DNA from: Nanobdellota archaeon
GTDB lineage: Archaea > Nanobdellota > Nanobdellia > Parvarchaeales > Parvarchaeaceae
Assembly (NCBI GenBank): GCA_021802105.1
Contig: JAKAAW010000002.1
Coordinates: 993-64,992 of the forward strand
Direction: 5' to 3'
DNA: 64,000 nucleotides
Shown here one piece after another: positions 18,696 through 33,451 of the stretch. Below the pieces are notes generated by a model. It made no database searches, had not been told where the DNA came from, and was given only the letters and a program-made list of their open reading frames with translations. The position numbers were made by a program, and so were the translations under genes. Numbering within the stretch: position 1 is the stretch's first letter; each line of letters begins with the position of its first letter.

Positions 18696-18899
18696 CAGCT
18701 GGCAGTATTCGATGTTCCTGTTGTTATTTCTCAGCAGGGTAATCGCAATCCTCTCTGACCGAGCAGCGGAGCGTCCTATTCCCAATATAGCATTTTATAT
18801 CAAAACTTGTATCTAAATAAGATTACCACTCTTACACAAAAGAAAATTGGTAAAGTCCAAAAACGAAGCTTTTAAATATGATTAAGTTTTTATATTCCT

Positions 18900-20222
18900 A
18901 TGTCGGTGGGCGGAAGCGTTAATCTCAAGACAAGACACAGTTCTCATCTTAAATCTATATACCCGGGTGCGTTGTCCGGCTGGATAATGGACTCATTCGA
19001 TCTCAGCATGATGTTCCTATTGGTCCCAACACTCGCAGAGGTGTTTTTCCCGTCTAATTACGGTTTAGCTCTAATCGGAGTATGGAGCATTTACACTACG
19101 ACATTCGTTTTCAGACCGGTAGGAGGGCTTCTTTTCGGCAGGTTAGGAGATAAAATAGGTCGTAAAAGGGCTATGATAATAACTTTAACAGGCCTTGGAA
19201 TTATAATATTCGCTACAGGGTTCCTTCCCACTTATGCCGCAATAGGCATAGCTGCTCCAATACTTCTTTTCATATTCAGGATAATAACAGGTATATTCGG
19301 AGGCGGAGAGTACGGAAACAGCGCCTCTATAATCATGGAGTCAGTAAGGAACAGCAAGAGAGGGTTCTGGAGTGGCGCTATACAGTCTGGTTATCCTATA
19401 GGTTACACGCTTGCAGCAGTCCTTTTCCTAGGGCTTAATTTCTATTTTGGACATGCTATATTCTTTGTAAGCGGCTGGAGATGGATGTTCTACATAGGTA
19501 TAATCCCAGTCATCATAGGCCTTATTATACGTCTGAAAATGCCAGAATCGGCGCTTTGGTCGGATATCTACAAGAAATCAAAAGTAAGTCGTGCTCCTAT
19601 AAGGGAAGTGTTCAGGAACGCAATCATGAGGAGAGGAGTCCTCGAGGGTGTGTTGGCGATGACAGGTATAGCATGGGTATATGGCCTTACATTAGGGTTC
19701 TTTCCTACAATACTTTCGATTAACAACTTCATAGCTTTCCCTACATTCCTTTATATAGTCATAGCAGCGATACTTACGTCACTTGTGGGTTACTTCATAT
19801 CTGGAGCAGCAAGTGACCGTATTGGAAGAAGAAATACCATGATAGCGTTCTCACTGGCAGCCATGCTGTTCTCAGTGCCTTTCGCTTACATGACAATGAA
19901 CCATATGGGAGGAGTATATAGCATAGGTATCTTTGCTGCGGTAATAGCATTCTTTACAACGGGGATATATGGTGTAATACCTGCATTCCTCAGCGAGAAA
20001 TTCCCTACAAAAACTAGGAGTACTGGTGTTGGTATCGGTTTCAACGGCGGCTTCATACTAGGTAACTGGAGCACGGTTTTCCTGCTCCTTTTGACTACTA
20101 CTACAGCAGCCGCTTTCTTCGGATGGTGGGCATATTTCATAGTGATAGGAGAGGTCTTCATACTGGTGGCTGCAGTTATCTCCAAAGAGACGAAAGGGAT
20201 AGATCTGACAGAAATGAAGTAA
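18900..20222 (+). CDS. MFS transporter
   Basis: 12 TM helices, with GRLGDKIGRKR between TM2 and TM3 (MFS signature). Confidence 0.8.
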   Translation: MSVGGSVNLKTRHSSHLKSIYPGALSGWIMDSFDLSMMFLLVPTLAEVFFPSNYGLALIGVWSIYTTTFVFRPVGGLLFGRLGDKIGRKRAMIITLTGLGIIIFATGFLPTYAAIGIAAPILLFIFRIITGIFGGGEYGNSASIIMESVRNSKRGFWSGAIQSGYPIGYTLAAVLFLGLNFYFGHAIFFVSGWRWMFYIGIIPVIIGLIIRLKMPESALWSDIYKKSKVSRAPIREVFRNAIMRRGVLEGVLAMTGIAWVYGLTLGFFPTILSINNFIAFPTFLYIVIAAILTSLVGYFISGAASDRIGRRNTMIAFSLAAMLFSVPFAYMTMNHMGGVYSIGIFAAVIAFFTTGIYGVIPAFLSEKFPTKTRSTGVGIGFNGGFILGNWSTVFLLLLTTTTAAAFFGWWAYFIVIGEVFILVAAVISKETKGIDLTEMK

Positions 20223-20593
20223 TCTTTTTATCCAGCTTTTCTATATACCACAGTTTTTATATGGATCCTTTGACATTTATAAGCACATATCTATTTTATT
20301 GATAGTCCAACTGTCAAAAGTAGGATAAGTAGGATAAATACTACTTAATAGGCACTAGGGAGACTTTTCTCAACAATTAATTTAATGTTATTTTAACATT
20401 ATTTAGTGCTATAATTAATATGTTAATATATCAATATTAGTATAATTAGTTTGAAGTAAATTATTGCTATTTAATTAATAATAATACAAACAATACTTAT
20501 ACTTTTATACTAAAGTTTATATTATTATAGAAACTATATATATGTTAATATAGAACAGCTAAAAAATAAATAGAAACAACTACTAACACTGGT

Positions 20594-21013
20594 ATGGATA
20601 AAAGAAATCATAGACGTAACGGTTACAAGAATTCCCCCGAGTTCGGTGATTGGCGCCATGGTCCGTTCAGGATGGTCTTTTCTTTCTTATGGGTGATGTT
20701 TTTTGTTCTTGTTTTCCTGTCTATGATAGCGCTGGTTCTTAATTATATAATTGGAATACCAATTAGCTGGCTGGGAAATGCTTGGGGAGCATGGGGTGGA
20801 ATCTGGATATTTTTATTGATATTATTCTTTTTTATGAGGCCATGGGGCTGGATGTACTACTGGAAGTATAATGACCCGCGAATATGGAGGCGTCAGGGGT
20901 ATGGTGACCATTTTGATGACTATGCTCTTTATATAGCAAGAAAACGTCTAGCGCATGGCGAGATTACAGTTGAACAGTATAGGAAGATCGTCAATGAGCT
21001 AAAAAGAAAGTAA
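20594..21013 (+). CDS. Small membrane protein with a C-terminal SHOCT domain
   Basis: Two or three Trp/Gly-rich TM helices. The C-terminus ARKRLAHGEITVEQYRKIVNELKR matches the SHOCT pattern (RxARGEIxxEEYxxxKxxL). Confidence 0.6.
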   Translation: MDKRNHRRNGYKNSPEFGDWRHGPFRMVFSFLWVMFFVLVFLSMIALVLNYIIGIPISWLGNAWGAWGGIWIFLLILFFFMRPWGWMYYWKYNDPRIWRRQGYGDHFDDYALYIARKRLAHGEITVEQYRKIVNELKRK

Positions 21014-21264
21014 AATTACGTATACATATGGTGTTCTTTGCAATTGATAAAGTACCAGCGCTTCCGCAGCTTATGGACTGATGACGCAGTGCAGCAATGT
21101 TCTAGTGCATATCATCTCAGAGTGTTCGGCGTTCAGATCCAGACTTTATTGCTAAAAAACACAGCTTTGATTATTATGATATTATAACATAAGTATTGTT
21201 ATTCAATTTTTATCCCTTTTTTCCACTCACAAACTTTAAATATTATAACCACTTATAACTTGTT

Positions 21265-21699
21265 ATGGCGACTACAATACAGATAAGCGACGAGGTTAAG
21301 GAAAAGTTAGAAGGACTGAAAATCCACAAAAGACAACCGTTTAATGAAGTTCTTTTAGAGTTAATAAGGGACAAAGAGGCTGGTAAAAACACAGAAGAAA
21401 GGCAAAAGCAGGTGGTAAACAGCCTTGAAGAGATTAAAAAATTAGCCGCTCCTATATTAAGGAACCACAGGATAAAGAAAGCCGCCGTATTCGGGTCATT
21501 TGCAAGGGGCGATTTTGATGATAAAAGTGATGTAGATATATTAATAGAGCGGCCGGATAAATTCTCTTTATTTGATTTAGCTGGCCTACATCTTGACTTA
21601 GAAGGAGCATTGGGTAGGAAGGTGGATATAGTTATATACAATAGTGTAAATCCTCTGATAAAAGGTAGGGTAATGAAAGAAAAAAAGGACATAATATGA
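21265..21699 (+). CDS. mntA: RHH-fused minimal nucleotidyltransferase (MntA-type antitoxin)
   Basis: N-terminal TIQISDEVKEKLEGLK (RHH/antitoxin-like), then VFGSFARGDFDDKSDVDILI (GSx10DxD). Confidence 0.8.
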   Translation: MATTIQISDEVKEKLEGLKIHKRQPFNEVLLELIRDKEAGKNTEERQKQVVNSLEEIKKLAAPILRNHRIKKAAVFGSFARGDFDDKSDVDILIERPDKFSLFDLAGLHLDLEGALGRKVDIVIYNSVNPLIKGRVMKEKKDII

Positions 21700-22037
21700 G
21701 AGAAGGGCAGGATAAGGTGCTATTAACTGATATTTTATCAGCAATCGAGTGGATTAAAAATCACACGAAAGGAATCAACGAAGAAGAATTTAAGAAAAAT
21801 GATGTTTTGGTGTATGCGGTAATAAAGAATATGGAAATAATTGGTGAAGCGTCATCGAGTCTTTCGGAGTATACTATAAATAAAAATCAACAAATTGAAT
21901 GGCAGAAGATAAAGGACATGAGAAATGTACTTGTGCATGCCTATTCTAAGATTAATTTAGAAACACTTTGGGATACCATAATAAATGATCTGCCTAGATT
22001 AAAAGATCAGATAAGACATATCAAGAAAAATGAATAA
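21696..22037 (+). CDS. hepT: HEPN (DUF86) toxin HepT
   Basis: MRNVLVHAYSKINLETLW contains the Rx4H HEPN motif. An ATGA start/stop overlap links it to the upstream MNT gene. Confidence 0.8.
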   Translation: MREGQDKVLLTDILSAIEWIKNHTKGINEEEFKKNDVLVYAVIKNMEIIGEASSSLSEYTINKNQQIEWQKIKDMRNVLVHAYSKINLETLWDTIINDLPRLKDQIRHIKKNE

Positions 22038-22164
22038 TTATTCTTTTGAGAGGAACCTATAGTTTCGCTAATTATTTAGAGAGTTAAAAGTAAAAATCGA
22101 TATTATTAGTTATGGCCTATGAACCGACGAAGGATCGCATAATGAAAGGGACGTAAGCCACTTT

Positions 22165-22314
22165 ATGGATAAAAATTCAAAAGATGATAAGGAGTTAATT
22201 AGGCACATGATTAATCTAATAATATATCAATACTTCAGAATAAACGCAAAAGAGATATGGAATATTGTATGGAAGGACTTACTTCAACTCGAGAAGAAAC
22301 TTAAGCAATCTTAA
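22165..22314 (+). pseudogene. Decayed C-terminal fragment of a third HEPN/DUF86 gene (49-aa ORF)
   Basis: My translation is MDKNSKDDKELIRHMINLIIYQYFRINAKEIWNIVWKDLLQLEKKLKQS. It aligns with ..MRNVLVHAYSKINLETLWDTIINDLPRLKDQI of the neighbouring HepT, but the R and H of Rx4H are replaced. Confidence 0.3.
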
Positions 22315-22450
22315 TAGTTTCAGTTCTCCTAACATATCGTAGAATTTACATCAAACTTGAAAAGTAAAATTTAGTTAAAAACTGGTTCTATAAGCTATAA
22401 TTTGGTGGTATACCGCTAAACTTAAATAATCAAACTAATCAATATGCTTT

Positions 22451-22939
22451 ATGACTGAAAAGATAGACTGGAAAGAGCTTGATAAATTCATAAGAAAATG
22501 CCTGAAAGTAATGACATCTGTAAACAGTATGAAAGCATTTATAGCCAAAAGAGACGGATCAAAGACAAGATTTTACAAGTGGCGAAAGTGGAGATACCAT
22601 GACAATTTCATAACCAGAAACGGATATGTTGCTGGCCAGGGCATACTTTATTATGACAAAAGACCGGTATTTTCAGCGGTTTACTACTATTCCTTTGCTG
22701 AAGATGCGGGCTTAAAACTGCTAAAATTCTTAGGGGAAGCAGTACTCGATAGCTATGATTACTTTTCAAAAAACCCTTCAAAAACGAAATTCTGTTTTAA
22801 AAACAAACAATTTGAATACTCAAGAACCATGAAAAAGGCTAATGAGATGGATACTTTAACATCTGAAAACAGCGTAAAAATCAAGGAAAAAGGCAAAACT
22901 GTTTACTTTGCAAAGGATATAAGCGGATACTTAATTTAG
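22451..22939 (+). CDS. Hypothetical protein (162 aa)
   Basis: Clean ORF in the accessory region. I recognise no motif. Confidence 0.5.
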   Translation: MTEKIDWKELDKFIRKCLKVMTSVNSMKAFIAKRDGSKTRFYKWRKWRYHDNFITRNGYVAGQGILYYDKRPVFSAVYYYSFAEDAGLKLLKFLGEAVLDSYDYFSKNPSKTKFCFKNKQFEYSRTMKKANEMDTLTSENSVKIKEKGKTVYFAKDISGYLI

Positions 22940-23001
22940 AAGAGAAAACTATAAATAGTATATAAGTTTATATAATAATATTAATAAGTATTATAACAGT
23001 T

Positions 23002-23274
23002 ATGACAAAGAATGTAAATGAGGTATTGCATTACCCCAGACTTGATACAGTATTGATGGTTGAGGAGGCGATAAAAAATGCTAAAGAGTACTCCTCAAAA
23101 AGACAACTTTGGCTTTCATTGAAGAAAAAGGTCATGTATCAAACTTTTAACATAGTTATAGATTATTTGGTAGAGTCAAACAAAGTGGTCATCGATAAGG
23201 AAGGCAAGGTTATTTGGATATGGGATCCAGAAGGCGTAAAAAAGTATATGAAAGAGGGAGTAATAATACGATGA
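23002..23274 (+). CDS. Putative antitoxin / small winged-helix-like protein
   Basis: 90 aa. Its stop overlaps the ATG of the RelE-like gene (ATGA at 23271-23274). Confidence 0.45.
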   Translation: MTKNVNEVLHYPRLDTVLMVEEAIKNAKEYSSKRQLWLSLKKKVMYQTFNIVIDYLVESNKVVIDKEGKVIWIWDPEGVKKYMKEGVIIR

Positions 23275-23597
23275 GGCAAATAAATGTGGTTCTAGTTGAT
23301 AAAAAACTTGAAAATTTATTGAATAAAGCTAAAAATGATGAACCGCAAGTTTATAAATTTCTAAATCGGGCATTTGATGACTTAAAGAAAGATCCAACCT
23401 GCGGTATACAGATACCAAAAAATTTGATACCTAAATATTATATACAAAGGTATGGTATAGATAATTTGTGGAAATATAACCTGCCAAATGCCTGGCGTCT
23501 GATGTACTCAATAAAAGGATCCGATATTTCTATTCTTACAGTGGTTTTAGAATGGTTACCACATAAGGAATACGATAGAAGATTCGGATACTTATAA
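23271..23597 (+). CDS. RelE/ParE-superfamily toxin-like protein
   Basis: LWKYNLPNAWRLMYSIKGSDISILTVVLEWLPHKEYDRRFGY resembles the RelE/YoeB-type C-terminal core (W/R..Y.i....i.v..i..H.eY). Small and basic. Confidence 0.6.
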   Translation: MRQINVVLVDKKLENLLNKAKNDEPQVYKFLNRAFDDLKKDPTCGIQIPKNLIPKYYIQRYGIDNLWKYNLPNAWRLMYSIKGSDISILTVVLEWLPHKEYDRRFGYL

Positions 23598-23885
23598 TAA
23601 GGATTTCATAATTTAAGTCATGGGTAAGTATCTTTCTCCTTTTGGGAGAAAAGGGAAGCACTTGATTTCGTTATTTTACGATTTACCCATCAAAGGTATC
23701 CTGCGACGAATGATGGGGATCAAACGCCACTTAAGTATAATTCTATGGCTTTTCGTATGTTTTTTATGTGTTTTTTAGCGATTTTGAGGCCTCGATTTCT
23801 ACCCTTACAGGGTATCCAGATTACACTTAAAGACTAATTGAGATGGGAAAAACTACTAAATTTGCTGTTTTTACTTCAATTATAT

Positions 23886-24359
23886 CTATTTATTAACCAT
23901 CTTTTGGGCTTTTCTAATCAAAGCTTCACCCCAGTCCCCATACCCACTTACCGAGTATTCCTCTACATTTAAATTGCCGTCTCTAGTTTTTTCAACATCG
24001 AATACTAATCGGTAATCCGGACCTGGCTGACCTAAACTTATTTTCAGGTGAGGAGAACCGCAATTATAATAACTAAGCTGAAGTGGATAGCTATAAGCCT
24101 TATCCTTACTCACAAGAAAATATTTAATGGAATATACAGCAGCCCGTCCATTACTAAGAGAGAATACCTCCCCTTTACCTTTTTCAATGCCTTTATTCAG
24201 CAAAACTATTGCGCTCTCATATAAATTTAAGATATTTGACCGAATTTTAATTGTTTCCATACGCAGTATTTCATCCAATTTTTCTTCTTTTTTCCGTATA
24301 TGGTCATCTTCTTTTTTCTCTATATAGCCACCACGCTCTTTAGTATCCAAAGCTCCCAT
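23886..24359 (-). CDS. Hypothetical protein (157 aa), with a charged N-terminal helix and a beta-rich C-terminus
   Basis: Clean ORF with no recognised motif. Confidence 0.5.
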   Translation of the reverse strand: MGALDTKERGGYIEKKEDDHIRKKEEKLDEILRMETIKIRSNILNLYESAIVLLNKGIEKGKGEVFSLSNGRAAVYSIKYFLVSKDKAYSYPLQLSYYNCGSPHLKISLGQPGPDYRLVFDVEKTRDGNLNVEEYSVSGYGDWGEALIRKAQKMVNK

Positions 24360-24456
24360 AATTTATACCTTCTACTCACTACTATTCAATACTATAGAAA
24401 ATAAGTTATATAAATACTTGTTTTTATGGTTATGGGTACACTTACAGCTAAAATGC

Positions 24457-24978
24457 CTATTTTTTGACTATTTTTACGCCCTTTTTATGCCACATGCTCC
24501 TGCTCTTTTTAATCAGGTTCTCAGTCGTACTCTCCATCCAAATCGAATCGATATACTTGCCTTTTATTTTTAGAACATTTTTTATCAGCCCAGCTCTCTT
24601 TCCACCGCAGTTCTCGAAAAGGGCAATTGAAGCTTTGTTGTCAGGGGTGGTGCTGATAAGCGTTATCTTTATACCTTTATTTAGTGCCGTCTGAGCTGTT
24701 TGGAACATCATAAAGTAGGACAAGCCACTGCCTCTGAACTTCTTTGATACAAAATAGCCGATTTCGCCGACATGTCTGCTGTAATAATTCCCATGAACAG
24801 TTGTTGGGCGGCGAATGTTGTAGTTGGCTATATTCTTAGAATCGTAATAAGCGCTTAGTATATAGTTGTTAAGTGAATATCTTGTTGTTTCTTTGCCGGT
24901 AACTAGTTTGTATAAGGGTTTCTCGCTCTCTACTCTGCTTATACTTACCACTCTGCCGTCCTTCAGCTGAATCAACAT
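24457..24978 (-). CDS. GNAT-family N-acetyltransferase
   Basis: FRGSGLSYFMMFQTAQTALNKG (acetyl-CoA-binding R/QxxGxG/A-like segment) and NKASIALFENCGGKRAG. Confidence 0.75.
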   Translation of the reverse strand: MLIQLKDGRVVSISRVESEKPLYKLVTGKETTRYSLNNYILSAYYDSKNIANYNIRRPTTVHGNYYSRHVGEIGYFVSKKFRGSGLSYFMMFQTAQTALNKGIKITLISTTPDNKASIALFENCGGKRAGLIKNVLKIKGKYIDSIWMESTTENLIKKSRSMWHKKGVKIVKK

Positions 24979-25423
24979 ACTTAAGTTAAGCAGTTTTGGC
25001 TATTAAGTTTGTCTATGTGCATGCTAAAAACGCCATCCTTAGTGCCTTTTAGCTAGTCTTCTTCATCCATATAACATTCGGATAGTTAGAAGACTAACTA
25101 AAATCACGGAAAATACTAAAATTACCTTCTTATAGTCATAGTTTTCTTACAAATAGATTTAGTTTCATTTTTTATATTTTATTATTTTATCTAATATATT
25201 AATATTAATTATTTAGGTATAATATCATTAATAGTACATTCTAAAAATAAGTAATATTATCATATTATATAATACTATTTTTATATTTTAATTAGCAATA
25301 ATTTTATGTTAAGTTATAATCAGCCAGTGAAAATATGGATAAAATCGCATCGATTTGCTAGAAGTATAAATCTATATATCAAAGTAACTAAAGGTATTTA
25401 TACCTTTATAACCTTATATCTGT

Positions 25424-25930
25424 ATGGCACAGATGAAAAGCTATATCCCGAACGACATAGATAAAAAGCTAAGGATCCAAGCGATGGTAAGATTCGGTTA
25501 CGGCAGGGGATCCATAAGTAAGGCTGTGGAAGAGGCGTTAATGCAGTGGTTAAAGAAGGAGGCAGTAATAAATGATGTGATACAGAGGATAATTGAACAC
25601 GGGAAGGAGGATAAAAACATAACTGCGATAATACTATTTGGAAGCTATGCAAGAAAGGAGCCTGGCTTCAATGACGTTGACGTGGGTTTTTTGGTGAAAA
25701 TCAGCGAAGAATTCGATATATTAAAATACATCAATCTGCTTGAGGGCGAAGCTGCAAATCTTTTTCAGATGACGGTCATAAACAGTTTCCCAGAATGGAC
25801 ACAGGTACATATAATCGACGAGGGAGTGCTCCTGCAGGTGAATGACAGGAGCGAATTATATGGCTATACTTCCAAGCTTATACGCAATTTTTCTGACAAC
25901 GCACATATAGCGGCGCTGCTTAGAAGCTGA
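25424..25930 (+). CDS. mntA: RHH-fused minimal nucleotidyltransferase (second MntA-type antitoxin)
   Basis: N-terminal SYIPNDIDKKLRIQAMVRFGYGRGSISKAVEEALMQWL (CopG/RHH-like), then LFGSYARKEPGFNDVDVGFL. Confidence 0.75.
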   Translation: MAQMKSYIPNDIDKKLRIQAMVRFGYGRGSISKAVEEALMQWLKKEAVINDVIQRIIEHGKEDKNITAIILFGSYARKEPGFNDVDVGFLVKISEEFDILKYINLLEGEAANLFQMTVINSFPEWTQVHIIDEGVLLQVNDRSELYGYTSKLIRNFSDNAHIAALLRS

Positions 25931-25932
25931 TT

Positions 25933-26364
25933 ATGGAATACGATATGCGTGACAGGATAATCGATAAACTAAATGAGATAGATGTACATTTAAACCGGAT
26001 AAAAAGTATACGTGTAAATAGTTTTGAAGATTACAAAAACGCGGACCCGAATATAAAGTATTCAACGGAGAGGAACCTGCAGCTGATAAGCGACGCAGAG
26101 CTGGACGTAGTTGTCCTAATGTACAAAAAATTCGGCAGGGACGTAGCAGGGGGCCTGCCATCGATGATAAAATCGTTAAAATCCGTGTTGAGCAGTAGCC
26201 TGCTTGGATATTTTGATAAACGGAGGGAACTTAGGAACAGATTGGTGCATGTATATAAGGAATTTTCATTCGATAAGGAAGTCTTTGAATCCAGCAGGGA
26301 CACAGCAGATATTGAAGCGTTTGTGCAGGAAATTAAAAAAATAATAGACAGGGATTGGACTTAA
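25933..26364 (+). CDS. hepT: HEPN (DUF86) toxin (second HepT)
   Basis: RRELRNRLVHVYKEF contains Rx4H. The gene starts 2 nt after the MNT stop. Confidence 0.75.
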   Translation: MEYDMRDRIIDKLNEIDVHLNRIKSIRVNSFEDYKNADPNIKYSTERNLQLISDAELDVVVLMYKKFGRDVAGGLPSMIKSLKSVLSSSLLGYFDKRRELRNRLVHVYKEFSFDKEVFESSRDTADIEAFVQEIKKIIDRDWT

Positions 26365-26486
26365 AGCTGCGGGACTAGAGTTTTATATCTGGCTCCTCAG
26401 CATTTTGCACGGATGATCTTTGTCTTGCTATTTGTTTCCTAGACTCATATCTCTTTATTTTCGGATCGGCCAGCGCAATTAGACGC

Positions 26487-26504
26487 CATATGCAAAGGCA
26501 TATG
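26487..26504. promoter_or_regulatory. Perfect 7-4-7 palindrome upstream of the mer operon; candidate operator
   Basis: CATATGC-AAAG-GCATATG, about 76 nt upstream of the first mer-operon ATG (26580). Confidence 0.35.
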
Positions 26505-26550
26505 CACCCTATAACAAGTAATTATGTACACCCTGTGAAATGTGGCAGAT

Positions 26551-26574
26551 TTATATATGATAAAAATATCATAT
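26551..26574 (+). promoter_or_regulatory. TATA-like box plus an overlapping 8-4-8 palindrome directly upstream of the mer-operon start; candidate promoter/operator for a leaderless transcript
   Basis: TTATATAT at 26551-26558 lies about 25 nt upstream of the ATG at 26580. ATATGATA-AAAA-TATCATAT spans 26555-26574. Confidence 0.35.
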
Positions 26575-26579
26575 AATCA

Positions 26580-27101
26580 ATGATTCGAGACATAAAGAAA
26601 GTTATATCTTTGAGAGTATACGCATTCCTTTTTTCTATCCTTTTTACCTCAATATTTATTATTTACTTCTACCTACTGGAGAGCTCTGCAACTGGTATAA
26701 TGGACTTTAAATCATACTATATCTACTTTGATATATTGTCTGCGCTCATAATTTCATTTTTAGTGGGCTTAGTTATAACGCTCAACGTCTATTCTTATAG
26801 GTTAAAAACTAAGACAAGCAAAAAGCTGACTTTAAGCTCAATAATAGGTGCAATACTACCAAGCAGTCTATGTTGTACCAGCGTGATACCTTCATTGATG
26901 GCAGCGCTTGGGTTTTCAACATCTTTTATAGTCGGAAACACCGGAAAATTGCAGTCATTTTTTTCCTTGTATAGCCCGGGATTTATTGTGGCAGGGGCTG
27001 CAATAGCATTTTTTGGGCTTGTTCAGGTAACAAAAAATATAAACGCAAATTGTAGAATAACCAAAAATTCAAAGAATGATCGTTGCGAGGTTAAGGAATG
27101 A
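26580..27101 (+). CDS. Membrane protein with a MerT/MerF-like vicinal-cysteine helix (putative Hg(II) uptake protein)
   Basis: 4-5 TM helices. LPSSLCCTSVIPSLMAALGFS resembles the MerT TM1 sequence ..ACCLGPLVLIALGFS. It is the first gene of an operon that ends with merA. Confidence 0.5.
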   Translation: MIRDIKKVISLRVYAFLFSILFTSIFIIYFYLLESSATGIMDFKSYYIYFDILSALIISFLVGLVITLNVYSYRLKTKTSKKLTLSSIIGAILPSSLCCTSVIPSLMAALGFSTSFIVGNTGKLQSFFSLYSPGFIVAGAAIAFFGLVQVTKNINANCRITKNSKNDRCEVKE

Positions 27102-27652
27102 AAATCAGAATAAAATACTTGTTGTATATCGCCGTTTTGGTAATCGCCATGTTTATATTGTTGAATTTTTTAGTGCTGAACAATGCAAAATCCGGTGAGT
27201 ATCTCTCAGTAGGGGAAACCGCCCCAAATTACACCTTTCAACTTGCTAATGGCAGCACACAAAGCCTAAGCAGCTACAGTGGGAAACCGCTTATTTTATG
27301 GTTTGTAGCTACATGGTGCAGCAGTTGCGCACAGGGCAACACTGCAGTAGCAGAGAATCTTGGTTTCTTCAAAGAGCATAACGTCAAGATTGTAGAGCTG
27401 GAGCAGTACAATGACCTTGGAAGTGCAGGAATGTCAATCTCTAAGTTTATTTCTGAATACGGAAATAACAACACTTATATAACTGGGGGAATTGCAAGCT
27501 ACAACATGACACTGGCTTATAACACTCCTCCAAGTTTACAGCTTGACATATATTATCTGATAAGCCCGAATGGAAAGATACTAAATATAGGAGAAGGAAT
27601 CGCTGGCGGGATAGGAAATCTGGAGAATACAATATTAAAAGATGGCCTATGA
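27098..27652 (+). CDS. Membrane-anchored thioredoxin-fold protein (TlpA/ResA/redoxin-like)
   Basis: N-terminal TM anchor, then GKPLILWFVATWCSSCAQ (the WCxxC thioredoxin motif). ATGA overlaps occur at both ends of the gene. Confidence 0.7.
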   Translation: MKIRIKYLLYIAVLVIAMFILLNFLVLNNAKSGEYLSVGETAPNYTFQLANGSTQSLSSYSGKPLILWFVATWCSSCAQGNTAVAENLGFFKEHNVKIVELEQYNDLGSAGMSISKFISEYGNNNTYITGGIASYNMTLAYNTPPSLQLDIYYLISPNGKILNIGEGIAGGIGNLENTILKDGL

Positions 27653-27972
27653 AAAAAGCAACTGATTTTTTCTTTGACGCATTAGCAAACAAAAACAGAT
27701 TCAATATACTTATGCATCTCAGAAATAAAGAGATATGTGCAGGTGAGCTTCAAAAGAATCTTGGGATAGGACAGACTAACCTGTCGCATGACTTGAAATG
27801 CCTGCTTAATTGTGGGTTTATAATCATGAGGAAGGACGGGAGAAAAAGAGTTTACAAGATAAACACTGAAACAAAGGGATTAGTAGATGAAGTGGCAAAG
27901 CACGTTAAAATTTATGAAAGGTATTTGAAGAAATGTGGTATACTAAAGGAGGAAAAAAATGGAAGAATATGA
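27649..27972 (+). CDS. ArsR/SmtB-family metal-responsive transcriptional regulator
   Basis: NRFNILMHLRNKEICAGELQKNLGIGQTNLSHDLKCLLNCGFIIMRKDGRKRVY is a typical ArsR wHTH, with Cys candidates at EIC and CLLNC. Confidence 0.8.
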   Translation: MKKATDFFFDALANKNRFNILMHLRNKEICAGELQKNLGIGQTNLSHDLKCLLNCGFIIMRKDGRKRVYKINTETKGLVDEVAKHVKIYERYLKKCGILKEEKNGRI

Positions 27973-29374
27973 ATACGCAGTAGTGGGACACGGAGCTGCT
28001 GCCTTTGCTGCTGCATTGAAAGCGGATGATGCAGGGATAAAAACAGTGATGATAGGAAAAAATGAAACCGCCGGAGCAATTCTCGGTGGAACCTGCGTAA
28101 ACGTGGGATGCGTTCCTAGTAAAAGACTTATAACATTAGGAAATTTATTAGACAAAATAAATTACAGGAGATTTGATGGTTTATCCTACCTTACAAGGAT
28201 AGAAAATTTTAGCAAGATAATGCAAGATAAAGAATTTCTTGTTGAAAGTATGCGTTTCTCAAAATATAAGAAGGTACTTGGTAAATTAAAAAACGTGAAG
28301 TATGTGAACGGCTTTGCAAGCTTTAAAGATAAGAACATATTAATGGTAAACGGGCAAGAGATAAGAGCAAAGAAAATACTGATTGCAACTGGTGCGAGAG
28401 CAAAAATACCTAGAATAGACGGAATAGAAAAGATAAGATACTTGACAAATGAAGAGGCACTTTCACTGGAAAAACTTCCAAAGTCAATTATAATAGTAGG
28501 CGGAAGGGCATTGGGCCTTGAATTTGCGGAGTTGTTCGCTCATTTAGGAGTACAGGTTACTTTGTTGCAGAGAAGCGATAGAATACTGCCTGACTGGGAG
28601 CCTGAAGTTAGTTATTATCTTGAGCAGTACCTGAAGGAGGATGGGATAAATATAATAACTAATGTTAAAATAGATGAGGTTTCAAAGATTAAAGGGCTTA
28701 TAAACTTAACATTTTCCGTAAAAGGAATCAAAAGGGAATCAAAGGCAGAAGAGATTCTGCTGGCAACTGGCAGAATGCCGAACATAGAGAAATTGAATTT
28801 AAACAACATTGGAATAAAACTCGACAAGGATGGCTTTATAAAAATAAACAAGTACCTGGAAACTTCTGTCGAGGGGATTTATGCTGCTGGAGATGTAACA
28901 GGAGAGCCCATGCTTGAGGCATTGGCAGCCGCGGAGGGGAATAAAGCAACCATAAATGCATTCGGCGGCAAAAAAGTAGCAATTGACCTAAATTCTGTAC
29001 CTTCTGCTGTTTTCACATTTCCGGAAGCTGCGAGGGTTGGATTGACTGATAAAGAAGCGAACAACAATGGAATAAAGTGTGCCTGTCGGCCGGTGATGTT
29101 TAAAGATCTAGCCAAGGCAGGTATAATAAAAGATACTAGAGGATTGATAAAGATGGTAATAAACGCTAAGACTAAACGTATATTAGGCGTAGAAATAGTC
29201 GGAGAAAATGCAGCCGATCTAATACACGAATCTGTACTAGCTATAAAATTCAAGCTTACAATAGACGACATAATTGATACTGTTCATATATTTCCAACTT
29301 TAAGCGAGATAACGAAACTTGGAGCTCTATCATTTTATCATAACATAGATGACTTAAGCTGCTGCAGTGAATAG
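27959..29374 (+). CDS. merA: Mercuric reductase MerA (core enzyme, no NmerA domain)
   Basis: FAD fold VVGHGAAAFAAALKA, redox-active GGTCVNVGCVPSK, C-terminal vicinal Cys pair ..DDLSCCSE (MerA hallmark), and GGAGG 8 nt upstream of the ATG. Confidence 0.8.
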   Translation: MEEYEYAVVGHGAAAFAAALKADDAGIKTVMIGKNETAGAILGGTCVNVGCVPSKRLITLGNLLDKINYRRFDGLSYLTRIENFSKIMQDKEFLVESMRFSKYKKVLGKLKNVKYVNGFASFKDKNILMVNGQEIRAKKILIATGARAKIPRIDGIEKIRYLTNEEALSLEKLPKSIIIVGGRALGLEFAELFAHLGVQVTLLQRSDRILPDWEPEVSYYLEQYLKEDGINIITNVKIDEVSKIKGLINLTFSVKGIKRESKAEEILLATGRMPNIEKLNLNNIGIKLDKDGFIKINKYLETSVEGIYAAGDVTGEPMLEALAAAEGNKATINAFGGKKVAIDLNSVPSAVFTFPEAARVGLTDKEANNNGIKCACRPVMFKDLAKAGIIKDTRGLIKMVINAKTKRILGVEIVGENAADLIHESVLAIKFKLTIDDIIDTVHIFPTLSEITKLGALSFYHNIDDLSCCSE

Positions 29375-29761
29375 ACAAGAATTTAAGTTTATTTTAAGAT
29401 CATACGACGATGTCAGTCACTTGTGTAGTTTTCTATTTGATTAGATAGATAACATATAGGTAAAGATTAATTGAAATAGACAAAAAATCGGAAAAAATAG
29501 CTGTTTTGCACGGGTTATCTATGATTTTGATTCTTTATCCCCGATTATGACTCCTACTATAAGCAGTATAGCACTAAGAACCACCTCGAAGACTATAAGT
29601 TTCGGAAGGGAGATGTCCCTTGATTTAAAGTAAGCCAGAGCGCTTGTCACTCAGGCTATTACCAATCCGATGCCGACACCCAAAAAGTATCTCGCTGGAA
29701 GGGTATAGAAAGTAAGCCGAGTACCGTCCACGCTTATAATACACAGGTACCTTACACAAGT

Positions 29762-29998
29762 ATGACAGACGAAAGACAGCAGGAGGACAATTCCGCTAGA
29801 AAGAGCTCTACAAAAAAGAAGGTAGTCGTCATGACGATAACGGCGCTGTACTTCGTATTCGGGTTTTTCGCGCTTGTTATCTTGTTGGGGAGGGTCATCA
29901 ACCCGAACTACGCGGGACTCATAGGTTTAGTGTACCTAGCGCTAGGTTGGTATTTCTTGGTGAAGAGGCGCACGCTTATACACTTGATGAAACACTGA
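29762..29998 (+). CDS. Small two-TM membrane protein (hypothetical)
   Basis: 78 aa with a charged N-terminus and two hydrophobic helices. It lies in a region otherwise full of decayed fragments. Confidence 0.35.
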   Translation: MTDERQQEDNSARKSSTKKKVVVMTITALYFVFGFFALVILLGRVINPNYAGLIGLVYLALGWYFLVKRRTLIHLMKH

Positions 29999-30355
29999 AC
30001 AACTTGTGTATGTTTTTTACCGAAGCCGAAGTTATATTTATATATAACATCAGTGTCCTTAGCGAGTTCAACGTTTGTTTCATTTAATTCGGCACTGTGC
30101 TCCAGAAATCCCATGTTAGCAGTTGTGCAATACTAAGCTGTTATTTCATTTTTAATTGCCTACATAAATGCATTCATTATTGTTTCCTTGGCTTTATACC
30201 CTACACTTTATATTCTAATTGGGCTAAGATTACTGCAAGAGTCGTGTGTGTATCATGCCAAATTTATCTTATTTTCATTTGTTCTGCCCACTGATAATAG
30301 TCATTTCCTAAGAGAACACGGTGGTTATACCAATGTCGTGATTTCTTCTTTAATA

Positions 30356-31407: not shown

Positions 31408-33288
31408 TTAACTTGCAGTCACAACAGTTTCTGCATGTGCACCGATTTTTCCAAATAGATTTATACTATAAGAATCTCCTGAAATAAGCACGGCAAAAGG
31501 AGATGGTATCTTTACACCATTGTCACTTTGTACCTGCTGGGACGGTCCTAAATTCAATAAGCCACTGAGGGTAAACGTAATCGAATCTCCAGGCATAAGG
31601 GTATAACCTTTAGGTATCTGGTCCGGGTTTATCGTGACATTCGTATTGGTCGCGCCGTTGGCAATTGTATTCAATGCCGCGCCGTTCGCACTCGTCGAAT
31701 TAGAAACTACCTTTGTGCTCATCGCGTACATTGGTGGGAATCCAAGCGTACCGTTCGGGAATATCATGCGACCTATAGGGAACTTAGCTGCTCGTAAAGT
31801 TATCTGCAGCGGTGGAGTTACAGTCGGTGGTGCCATGCCGGCCGGGAATTGTATATAGAGCGTCGTTCCAACAGGAAGCGTTACCGCCGTGGCTCCAGAT
31901 GGTATAGTGACATTCAGGGCAGGCCCTTGCTGAGAACCATTTTGCTGGATAGTGTGTGTAAATTGCGGCATTGTAGTAGTTTTATAAACTATATCACCGC
32001 TGACATTGACAAGTGCTCCCGTTGAGTTTAATGATATTGCATGCGCTGGTGTGACTATTTTCAAGAAATAGAAAGTTCCATTTAATGTAATATTCAGAGA
32101 TACTGTACTATTTGTGCTGTTAATATAACCTGTACTATTTGACGTTTTTGTATTTGTACTGTTAATAGCACTTTTGTTAATATAACTTGTGCTAATAGAG
32201 GGTGTTATATTTGTACTGTTAATAGCACTTTTGTTAATATAACCTGTACTATTTGACGTTTTTGTATTTGTACTGTTAATCGGAGGTCGAGTCGGTATAG
32301 AAGGCAACGTAAACGTTGATGTTGTGTTCATTATCGTGCCATTGGGGAATGTTATCACCATCTTTGGAGGAGGTATAAAACCAGATGGGGTTAGCACGCC
32401 CGCTGGTGGAGTTATAGGGAGTTGCATGATCATGGATGGAAGACGGAAGAGCTCACTCATTGGAGGTTGTGGGAAATACACTTTTTTGAGCCCATTTATC
32501 ATTATACCGTTCAGCTGCACGCTATCATTCCCAGTGTTCTTTACGGTTACACTAAGATTGGTATAGTTACCGTCGATGGATATTGACGCAGAAGTAACAT
32601 TTATGGTAGGCGTTACATTGTTGAACAATTTACCTAAGCTTACATTGGAAGAAAAGTTCACCTTAGAACCTACTGGAGGAAGAGACTGTATTATTCCATG
32701 CTGCACACTAGAGGATCTGCTTAAAAATATGTTTGGTGGAGTTATGACAGCTCTCACATTAGCAGTCAAAACGTACACAGTCTTATCTACCGTTTCTATG
32801 GCTGTGACTGAAGGAATTAAGTCGACAAGCGCGTTTTTCTGCCCAGATATTGAATTGTTGGACGTTACATTTATCGTCAGTGTCCTTTCGCCTATCACGA
32901 CAGTATAGTTTTCGCCGCCTATCGTTATAATAGCATTGGATATATTAATTTTTATCTGCGTGACTTTAGAACCATTAAGAACGTTTGTTGATGCTAACAC
33001 TATCGATGAATTTTGCAGGCTTAGCACGTTTACGGTACCACTTCCTGGAAGTGTCTGCGTGCTTACGCCGCCACTATGCGAAATCTGGAGTTGCAGAGCA
33101 GAATATGTCACGAACAGCGCCGTGGTCCCTTGTGGCACTGTTGCAGGATCAGTAAGACTAAGGAAGAAATTTTTCTGTAAAGGAACTGAACTGGTCGTTG
33201 GGAACAAATTGTTAAAGATCATATACCCTGCGACAATAGCTATTACCGCCACAACGGTGACCATCATTAAGTAGGTTTTCGCACCCAT
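31408..33288 (-). CDS. Large secreted or membrane-anchored, heavily sequon-rich surface (S-layer-like) glycoprotein
   Basis: N-terminal anchor MGAKTYLMMVTVVAVIAIVAGYMIF. Dozens of N-x-S/T sequons and Thr/Ser/Asn/Pro-rich repeats. Confidence 0.6.
   Translation of the reverse strand: MGAKTYLMMVTVVAVIAIVAGYMIFNNLFPTTSSVPLQKNFFLSLTDPATVPQGTTALFVTYSALQLQISHSGGVSTQTLPGSGTVNVLSLQNSSIVLASTNVLNGSKVTQIKINISNAIITIGGENYTVVIGERTLTINVTSNNSISGQKNALVDLIPSVTAIETVDKTVYVLTANVRAVITPPNIFLSRSSSVQHGIIQSLPPVGSKVNFSSNVSLGKLFNNVTPTINVTSASISIDGNYTNLSVTVKNTGNDSVQLNGIMINGLKKVYFPQPPMSELFRLPSMIMQLPITPPAGVLTPSGFIPPPKMVITFPNGTIMNTTSTFTLPSIPTRPPINSTNTKTSNSTGYINKSAINSTNITPSISTSYINKSAINSTNTKTSNSTGYINSTNSTVSLNITLNGTFYFLKIVTPAHAISLNSTGALVNVSGDIVYKTTTMPQFTHTIQQNGSQQGPALNVTIPSGATAVTLPVGTTLYIQFPAGMAPPTVTPPLQITLRAAKFPIGRMIFPNGTLGFPPMYAMSTKVVSNSTSANGAALNTIANGATNTNVTINPDQIPKGYTLMPGDSITFTLSGLLNLGPSQQVQSDNGVKIPSPFAVLISGDSYSINLFGKIGAHAETVVTAS
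32100..32285. repeat. Tandem repeat of 57 nt (19 aa), about 3 copies, inside the surface-protein gene
   Basis: GTTAATATAACCTGTACTATTTGACGTTTTTGTATTTGTACTGTTAAT occurs exactly at 32119-32166 and 32233-32280, with a diverged copy between. The protein reads INSTNTKTSNSTGYINKSA / INSTNITPSISTSYINKSA / INSTNTKTSNSTGYIN. Confidence 0.85.
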
Positions 33289-33451
33289 AATGTTATTGTA
33301 ACAATGCACTAATTTAAATACCTATCTGCAATAAACTCATGTTTACTGCACGATTCTTCAAGAACCGTTCAAGACGCTTATTCCTGGCTGTAGAATGCCC
33401 ACTGTTCATCTTTGCTTCCATTTTTTATTGATTATCCGTACTAAATGTAAT

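Follow-up and report, generated by a model that had tools for sequence, protein, structure and literature searches.

A mercury-resistance operon of a Parvarchaeota-type archaeon carries a recurrent gene pair that suggests a mercury-uptake module

Several described mercury-resistance (mer) operons can be compared with the locus reported here, which consists of four open reading frames (ORFs; g1 to g4) on the plus strand of a 64,000-nt stretch of DNA from a Nanobdellota archaeon. This whole stretch is called the window below. Operons of the Tn501/Tn21 type (merT-merP-merA) combine a soluble external CxxC binder with an HMA fold (MerP), a membrane protein with vicinal cysteines and a cytoplasmic cysteine pair (MerT), and a mercuric reductase with a C-terminal Cys-Cys (MerA). 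The Sulfolobus-type operon comprises an ArsR-type 'MerR', the TRASH protein MerH, MerA and MerI, and it has been described without a membrane or extracytoplasmic component. For S. solfataricus and S. lividans, published work documents that an ArsR-type protein represses mer (PMC3466566). MerA has already been recorded in Micrarchaeota and Parvarchaeota; the large survey covered MerA and MerB only (PMC8261052). In the published literature, mer transporters are stated to be absent from Archaea.

The four genes are g1 (26580-27101, 173 aa), g2 (27098-27652, 184 aa), g3 (27649-27972, 107 aa) and g4 (27959-29374, 471 aa). Their frames overlap by 4, 4 and 14 nt, with ATGA at the g1/g2 and g2/g3 junctions and the 14-nt overlap between g3 and g4. 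The coordinates and overlaps were verified, and the frames of the homologues mostly overlap in related loci. The overlap-chained four-gene operon of the original prediction was upheld. Shine-Dalgarno-like sequences were detected before internal genes (GAGGT at 27087-27091 for g2 and AAGGAGG at 27946-27952 for g4). The motifs read in the four ORFs were LCCTSVIPSLMAALGFS, WCSSC, GGTCVNVGCVPSK and the C-terminal LSCCSE. We consider it almost certain that the locus is a mer operon, a self-contained mercury-resistance unit of 2.8 kb from a tiny acidophilic archaeon of the Parvarchaeota type (DPANN).

Counterparts of the three Tn501/Tn21 components appear to be encoded in the locus: a presumed external CxxC binder (g2), a membrane protein with a vicinal CC and C-terminal cysteines predicted to be cytoplasmic (g1), and a MerA with the C-terminal CC (g4). 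The genes are adjacent and translationally coupled, as in these operons, and g1 is a remote homologue of MerT. Unlike MerP, g2 is membrane-anchored and has a thioredoxin fold of the ResA/TlpA type. Further differences from Tn501/Tn21 are the two extra N-terminal helices of g1 and its lack of MerT helix 3, a regulator of the ArsR rather than the MerR type, and a MerA without the NmerA domain. The archaeal host, the core MerA and the ArsR-type repressor are shared with the Sulfolobus-type operon, and in Caldivirga a TRASH gene and merA directly adjoin the g1-g2 pair; the window, however, has no TRASH chaperone.

Current annotations name g1 a 'hypothetical protein' and g2 a 'redoxin', and our literature search found no paper that describes the g1-g2 pair as mer genes. 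ArsR-type mer regulators and DPANN MerA were already known. The g1-g2 pair conflicts with the published absence of mer transporters from Archaea, and its recurrence beside merA suggests a mercury-uptake module in Archaea.

The four encoded proteins

The g4 product was compared with flavoprotein models and solved structures. It scored 540.9 bits against the MerA equivalog TIGR02053 (cut-off, 454.45), and all other flavoprotein models stayed under their own cut-offs. The top PDB matches were all mercuric reductases (4ywo at 2e-112, then 5x1y and 1zk7); among the PDB sequences, dihydrolipoamide dehydrogenases reached at most 233 bits, more than 140 bits under the mercuric reductases. The redox-active pair C45/C50 lies in GGTCVNVGC, and the alignment to 4ywo extends as far as the C-terminal CC pair in LSCCSE. 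The N-terminal metal-binding NmerA domain is absent. By these comparisons g4 is a core MerA, as had been predicted. Variants of merA were seen in related loci: in L014 (8380-9748) the gene is broken into two overlapping ORFs by a frameshift or an assembly error, and in L042 (1865-3280) the second active-site Cys is replaced by Gly (GGTCVNVGG). In the actinobacterial L056, MerA is extended at its N-terminus and has 567 aa, and a further ORF of 169 aa stands between the g1-like and ResA-like genes.

For g1, no family was found in Pfam and NCBIfam, even at E-values up to 10. Its relatives have about 170 aa (38 close members, and 127 representative clusters in a profile search) and are all named 'hypothetical protein'. 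In these proteins C98-C99 never varies, C158 varies rarely if at all, and the C-terminus of most carries another Cys or a CC pair. When the g1-family profile was aligned with four genuine MerT sequences by hhalign, the probability was 86% and the E-value 4.7e-6. In this alignment, residues 78-170 of g1 lie on residues 5-85 of MerT, C98/C99 on C24/C25, ALGFS on ALGFS and C158 on C76. Since the profile-profile match aligns the CC pair, ALGFS and C158 with MerT, g1 is best described as distantly related to MerT, with two helices added at its N-terminus, and as lying outside the Pfam family. The CC helix had been proposed to be MerT-like, and the alignment of both cysteine pairs supports this. The Pfam MerT model (PF02411) was matched by 11 of the 27 close g1 relatives, all below threshold (best, 25.7 bits and E = 1.2e-5, against 32.9).

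The membrane protein g1 has four helices, and counts of Lys and Arg predict both termini inside, the CC pair in helix 3 and the C-terminal cysteines (C158 and C169) in the cytoplasm. In the AlphaFold 2 (AF2) model (predicted local distance difference test score, pLDDT, 77), helix 3 is interrupted at the CC pair. The g1 profile gave zero matches to PDB sequences, and Foldseek of the g1 model against the PDB gave nothing below E = 3. It is likely that g1 is an Hg(II) importer. The family of g1 was also compared with mycobacterial MerH of plasmid pMM23 (171 aa), which is similar in size, has several helices and a CC pair, and stands beside merA under an ArsR-type regulator. However, MerH carries its CC pair in helix 1, and hhalign detected no relationship between it and the g1 family (probability, 0.4%); this identity was rejected. 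The short 'MerT' of pMM23 matched g1 weakly (probability, 12%). A tblastn search of plasmids with an actinobacterial-like g1 relative found no match, and a word-index search with the Caldivirga g1 returned the self-match only. In L064, g1 has an extra N-terminal helix that carries its own LCC motif.

A Redoxin/AhpC-TSA domain is present in g2 (PF08534, 44.2 bits against a threshold of 26.6). The closest solved protein was Bacillus ResA, with E-values of 1e-9 by sequence and 4.8e-15 by profile. The AF2 model (pLDDT, 86) consists of an anchor helix at residues 5-28 and a ResA-like fold, with a Foldseek template modelling (TM) score to ResA of 0.8. The N-terminal beta-hairpin of the ResA/TlpA/CcmG fold is shared. 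The active-site motif is W-C74-S-S-C77 (WCSSC); the CxxC is invariant, and TWCxxC was found in all loci examined. These results bear out the transmembrane-anchored thioredoxin-fold protein that the original prediction had described. Since the N-terminal anchor helix is preceded by the positive residues MKIRIK, the same charge rule as for g1 places the domain outside the cell.

The fold, N-terminal anchor, beta-hairpin and WCxxC thus link g2 to ResA, TlpA and CcmG. Unlike these proteins, g2 has Asp150 at the position of the ResA cis-proline, directly before strand beta3 (which starts at residue 151 in the AF2 model). It also has Gly at position 80, which aligns with ResA Glu80, and in the genome it is paired with MerA instead of CcdA or proteins of cytochrome c maturation. 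The acidic residue is invariant across the family: it is Asp, with Glu in Caldivirga, in the motif D/E-[IV]-[YF]-Y-L. Under the NCBIfam models, g2 stayed below the cut-offs of ResA (57.7 against 170) and TlpA (23.4 against 230). In a passage that cites Su et al. 2007, the cis-proline of thioredoxins and ResA-type proteins is reported to exceed the CxxC in conservation and possibly to block metal binding by the CxxC (PMC2757866). Because of this reported effect, we count the acidic residue toward a g2 that binds Hg(II), for which we see even chances. The original prediction had proposed an Hg(II) hand-off or protective role for g2, which we keep as a hypothesis. The ferredoxin-like HMA fold of MerP, whose motif is GMTCxxC, was not found in g2, which has a thioredoxin fold; thus g2 would be at most a functional analogue of MerP with an unrelated fold. 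The AhpC-TSA match raised the identity of a peroxiredoxin, which was rejected: g2 has CxxC instead of T-x-x-C, and the residue at the cis-Pro position is not Arg.

The g3 product exceeded the cut-offs of two regulator models (NF033788 for ArsR/SmtB, 78.8 bits against 55; HTH_5, PF01022, 39.7 against 22), and it had been called an ArsR-type regulator on first sight. C51 and C55 form a C-x3-C in the recognition helix, and C95 is in the C-terminal tail. When g3 was aligned to CmtR (2jsc) with an offset of six residues, C51 and C55 fell on residues 57 and 61. We take these two residues, together with a C-terminal Cys, to be the Cd/Pb ligands of CmtR. The three cysteines of g3 are kept in the archaeal and almost all bacterial cassettes. 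These comparisons indicate that g3 is an ArsR/SmtB metalloregulator with a CmtR-type three-Cys site, and it is presumed to be an Hg(II) sensor. In the mer operon of Mycobacterium marinum pMM23, the ArsR-type regulator is 36% identical to g3 (E = 3e-14) and has the same CLxxCG motif. Thus g3 shares the winged-helix ArsR/SmtB fold, the Cys-x3-Cys recognition helix and the C-terminal Cys with CmtR and the actinobacterial mer regulators of pMM23 and Streptomyces lividans. It differs from them in that it scored 43.1 bits against the CmtR equivalog model (cut-off, 150) and in that the archaeal operator ATATGA-N8-TCATAT is specific to its group.

Association with merA, operator and module borders

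Linkage was analyzed in a scan of one genome per species with a narrower g1 alignment, which biases the sample toward members with the LPSSLCCT motif. To offset this bias, seven more distant members of the g1 family were sampled separately. The scan yielded 45 loci: 19 of the Parvarchaeota type, about 14 from Micrarchaeota and about 12 from bacterial metagenome-assembled genomes (MAGs), including Vulcanimicrobiota and Baltobacteraceae. Homologues of g1 and g2 were adjacent in every locus with room for both, mostly with overlapping frames, and an ArsR gene stood beside nearly all pairs. Archaeal cassettes run g1-g2-arsR-merA, and bacterial ones run arsR-g1-g2-merA. A MerA-type flavoprotein with GGTC[VI]N[VI]GC[VI]PSK and a C-terminal LSCC was encoded in the cassette in 37 of the 42 informative species genomes. 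A merA-type gene also accompanied the pair in six of the seven further, more distant contigs. Six divergent MerA partners all exceeded the TIGR02053 cut-off. The association of the two proteins with merA, which the original prediction had asked to be checked, was therefore found.

In the cultured crenarchaeon Caldivirga maquilingensis IC-167, whose genome is complete (CP000852.1; L065, 3734-5436), g1-like and g2-like genes occur with an ArsR gene. The pair is divergent from a Sulfolobus-type unit of a 55-aa TRASH-domain gene and merA, and ATATGA-N8-TCATAT lies in the shared intergenic region (3942-3961 of L065). No other genes accompany MerA as constantly as g1 and g2 in Parvarchaeota, Micrarchaeota, Caldivirga, Thermocladium, Marsarchaeota and several bacterial lineages of acid habitats.

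In three bacterial MAGs (bins FW021: L055, L054 and L047), the neighbouring flavoprotein has no C-terminal CC and scored 347 bits, below the MerA cut-off of 454. In all three, an in-frame TGA stands at the first redox-active Cys (IGGT-TGA-MNVGCIPTK; 8138-8140 in L055). Possibly, this flavoprotein is a disulfide reductase that contains selenocysteine. A hairpin of 6 bp begins 9 nt past the TGA; its folding energy is no better than that of shuffled sequence.

Upstream of g1, a TATA-like box (TTTATATA) is located at 26550-26557 on the plus strand, and TTTAT(A) is kept at this position in the Parvarchaeota loci. Since the box lies about 23-30 nt upstream of the ATG at 26580, it implies that g1 is leaderless or near-leaderless. 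The proximal palindrome TATATGATA-N4-TATCATATA (26554-26575) is exact. Its core, ATATGA-N8-TCATAT (26555-26574; here ATATGATA-AAAA-TATCATAT), shares positions with the TATA box, and 5 nt separate it from the ATG. We scanned 65 related loci (654 kb; several are duplicate contigs) for this core, whose chance expectation is about 0.02 copies per 64 kb. Far beyond this expectation, 37 exact copies were found, one in each of 37 loci, and in every case 2-5 nt before the start of the g1 homologue. The copies came from Parvarchaeota, Micrarchaeota and Caldivirga, that is, from three archaeal phyla, and none was found in the bacterial cassettes examined. The inner arm positions vary symmetrically by lineage (GATA/TATC, GAAA/TTTC, GAAT/ATTC and GATTG/CAATC), as would be expected for the binding site of a dimer. 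The proximal palindrome is presumed to be the binding site of the ArsR-type repressor.

A second exact palindrome, CATATGC-AAAG-GCATATG, is located at 26487-26504 and is specific to the window. It was absent upstream of 18 related loci and lies outside the DNA block common to the relatives. It was therefore rejected as a conserved operator, and its significance is doubtful. Both palindromes had been proposed as operators; both are exact, and the conservation of the proximal one before g1 supports that half of the proposal, whereas the distal half did not hold. At the place of this unrelated palindrome, many Parvarchaeum loci have ATATGAAA half-sites, which occur singly, one or two per locus, 10-25 nt upstream of the TATA box (L001, L011, L013, L015, L017, L019 and L021). 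A one-mismatch copy of the operator (ATATGATTAAGTTTTTATAT) was detected at 18876-18895 of the window, 5 nt upstream of a major facilitator superfamily transporter gene (18900-20222). It is probably due to chance: 0.28 such matches are expected, and at least two were found in 3 of 100 shuffles.

In the window, the DNA block found also in the relatives extends from about 26536-26550 to about 29370-29380. The conserved DNA spans the operator through the merA stop codon, and the flanks share nothing. Because similarity is limited in this way, the cassette behaves as a single module. In most Parvarchaeum genomes it is housed in one chromosomal slot; the window and several other genomes carry it elsewhere. 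Since similarity ends at its borders and its chromosomal position varies, the mer cassette is a discrete module able to move between genomic contexts. In L058, the neighbours of the cassette on its two sides are an integrase and a Y1 transposase.

Proposed mercury uptake and its alternatives

The model that we favor starts from what was observed above: the identity of MerA and of the ArsR protein, the fold of g2, the MerT homology and cysteine pattern of g1, the topology, the co-occurrence across two domains, the translational coupling and the operator conservation. When Hg(II) is absent, a g3 dimer would sit on the palindrome over the TATA box and the leaderless start and block transcription. 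Hg(II) bound at Cys51, Cys55 and Cys95 would release the repressor. Outside the cell, the CxxC of g2 would capture Hg(II) and pass it to the vicinal Cys98-Cys99 in helix 3 of g1. The latter would move Hg(II) across the membrane to its own cytoplasmic C-terminal cysteines, from which it would reach the C-terminal Cys-Cys of MerA. MerA would then use NAD(P)H to reduce Hg(II) to volatile Hg(0). We infer that g2 binds Hg(II), that g1 transports it, that it is handed on in this order and that the repressor binds the operator. To this uptake model as a whole, with g1 and g2 as the functional counterpart of MerT and MerP feeding MerA, we assign a probability of roughly 0.6. A broader reading is more tentative, at slightly less than even odds: Archaea and some acidophilic bacteria would possess an overlooked, dedicated Hg(II) uptake system, in which a four-helix channel derived from MerT works with a thioredoxin-fold protein turned into a metallochaperone by the acidic replacement of the cis-proline.

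Several results weigh against uptake. With the narrower profile of the close g1 family, the hhalign probability for MerT fell to 38%. The Pfam MerT model did not match g1 itself, and its gathering threshold (32.9 bits) was reached by neither g1 nor its relatives. The layout of MerT, three helices with the CC in helix 1, was not found in g1, which has four helices and the CC in helix 3. On the side of g2, the protein is most like a bona fide oxidoreductase, ResA, and the bacterial homologues carry Pro directly ahead of the acidic residue (PDIYYL), which makes the argument from a lost cis-proline weaker there. Two Parvarchaeota lineages, L024 (= L005/L006) and L028, have an intact g1-g2-arsR trio without an adjacent merA. 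In L005 (GCA_027374855.1), a convergent peptidase gene lies 76 bp past the arsR stop codon, and the contigs of L024 and L028 continue without merA. The high-GC contig L057 has g1 and two redoxin genes, and merA is absent from the contig. In such loci, therefore, either merA is elsewhere or the pair has a role independent of MerA, since an importer without a reductase should be harmful.

These loci without merA, and the nearness of g2 in sequence and fold to the reductases ResA, TlpA and CcmG, would suit a thiol-maintenance relay, the main rival to the uptake model. We also count for the relay that CcdA and ResA are the classic example of a cysteine-bearing membrane protein beside a membrane-anchored thioredoxin. 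Here g1 and g2 would act like CcdA and ResA, with cytoplasmic electrons passing through the C-terminal cysteines of g1 to its CC and on to the CxxC of g2. In an oxidising, metal-rich acid habitat, such a relay would keep exposed thiols reduced, those of the transporter included, or would free surface proteins of bound Hg. Under this reading, Hg(II) would have other ways into the cell, or g1 would let it in as a side activity. In Thermus, Hg induces the transcription of TlpA (PMC6445937), which also fits. However, g1 matched MerT and showed no similarity to CcdA/DsbD electron transporters (no Pfam or NCBIfam match at E-values up to 10, and four helices, not six). Moreover, g2 lacks the cis-proline that ResA-type reductases keep and has Gly at the position of ResA Glu80, and the tight linkage is to MerA and a sensor with a thiolate site rather than to genes for cytochrome c maturation or general redox functions. 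We regard the relay as unlikely, though worth keeping in view.

A broader substrate range was also considered, in which ArsR, g1 and g2 handle thiophilic metals in general (Cd, Pb, Cu(I), Ag and As(III)) and MerA is a frequent but optional partner. The sensor site resembles that of CmtR, which senses Cd and Pb; trios without merA occur; and the FW021 flavoprotein, which failed the cut-off, lacks the C-terminal CC and has TGA at the active-site Cys, is not a MerA. Against such a soft-metal module, the cassette includes a MerA-type gene in the large majority of genomes and further contigs counted above, MerT, which is specific for Hg, is the sole protein to which homology of g1 was detected, and neither an efflux pump nor any other metal gene is linked. 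This explanation therefore seems decidedly improbable. The idea that g1 and g2 are unrelated housekeeping genes that merely adjoin merA is effectively refuted, because their overlapping frames recur in two domains and with altered gene order, and the genes move as a unit.

If the broader reading of a dedicated uptake system is true, the view of archaeal mer operons as transport-free would be overturned, and a second, independently evolved solution to the role of MerP would be at hand. Should the proposed functions hold, the mer gene catalogues used in surveys of environmental Hg cycling miss a transporter family, and a role in Hg trafficking would be added to those of thioredoxin-fold proteins. 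Hg(II) delivery to MerA in Archaea would then be testable, because the cassette is small and present in the cultured C. maquilingensis IC-167. The conserved operator and its repressor could serve as an archaeal Hg-responsive switch.

Neighbouring DNA in the window

The mer cassette lies inside a low-GC stretch (20000-30000; GC, 0.31-0.38, against 0.40-0.44 in the flanks). Two nucleotidyltransferase (MNT)/HepT toxin-antitoxin pairs (21265-22037 and 25424-26364) and a GNAT acetyltransferase gene on the minus strand (24457-24978) were found in the same stretch, which looks like a variable or acquired region. An Rfam search of the window for RNA families found none. Beyond the cassette, the minus strand encodes at 31408-33309 a protein of 633 aa with a high content of Ser, Thr and Asn. 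It has a weak DUF4382 match and internal repeats (...NSTNTKTSNSTGYINKSAI...), and is probably a glycosylated surface protein.

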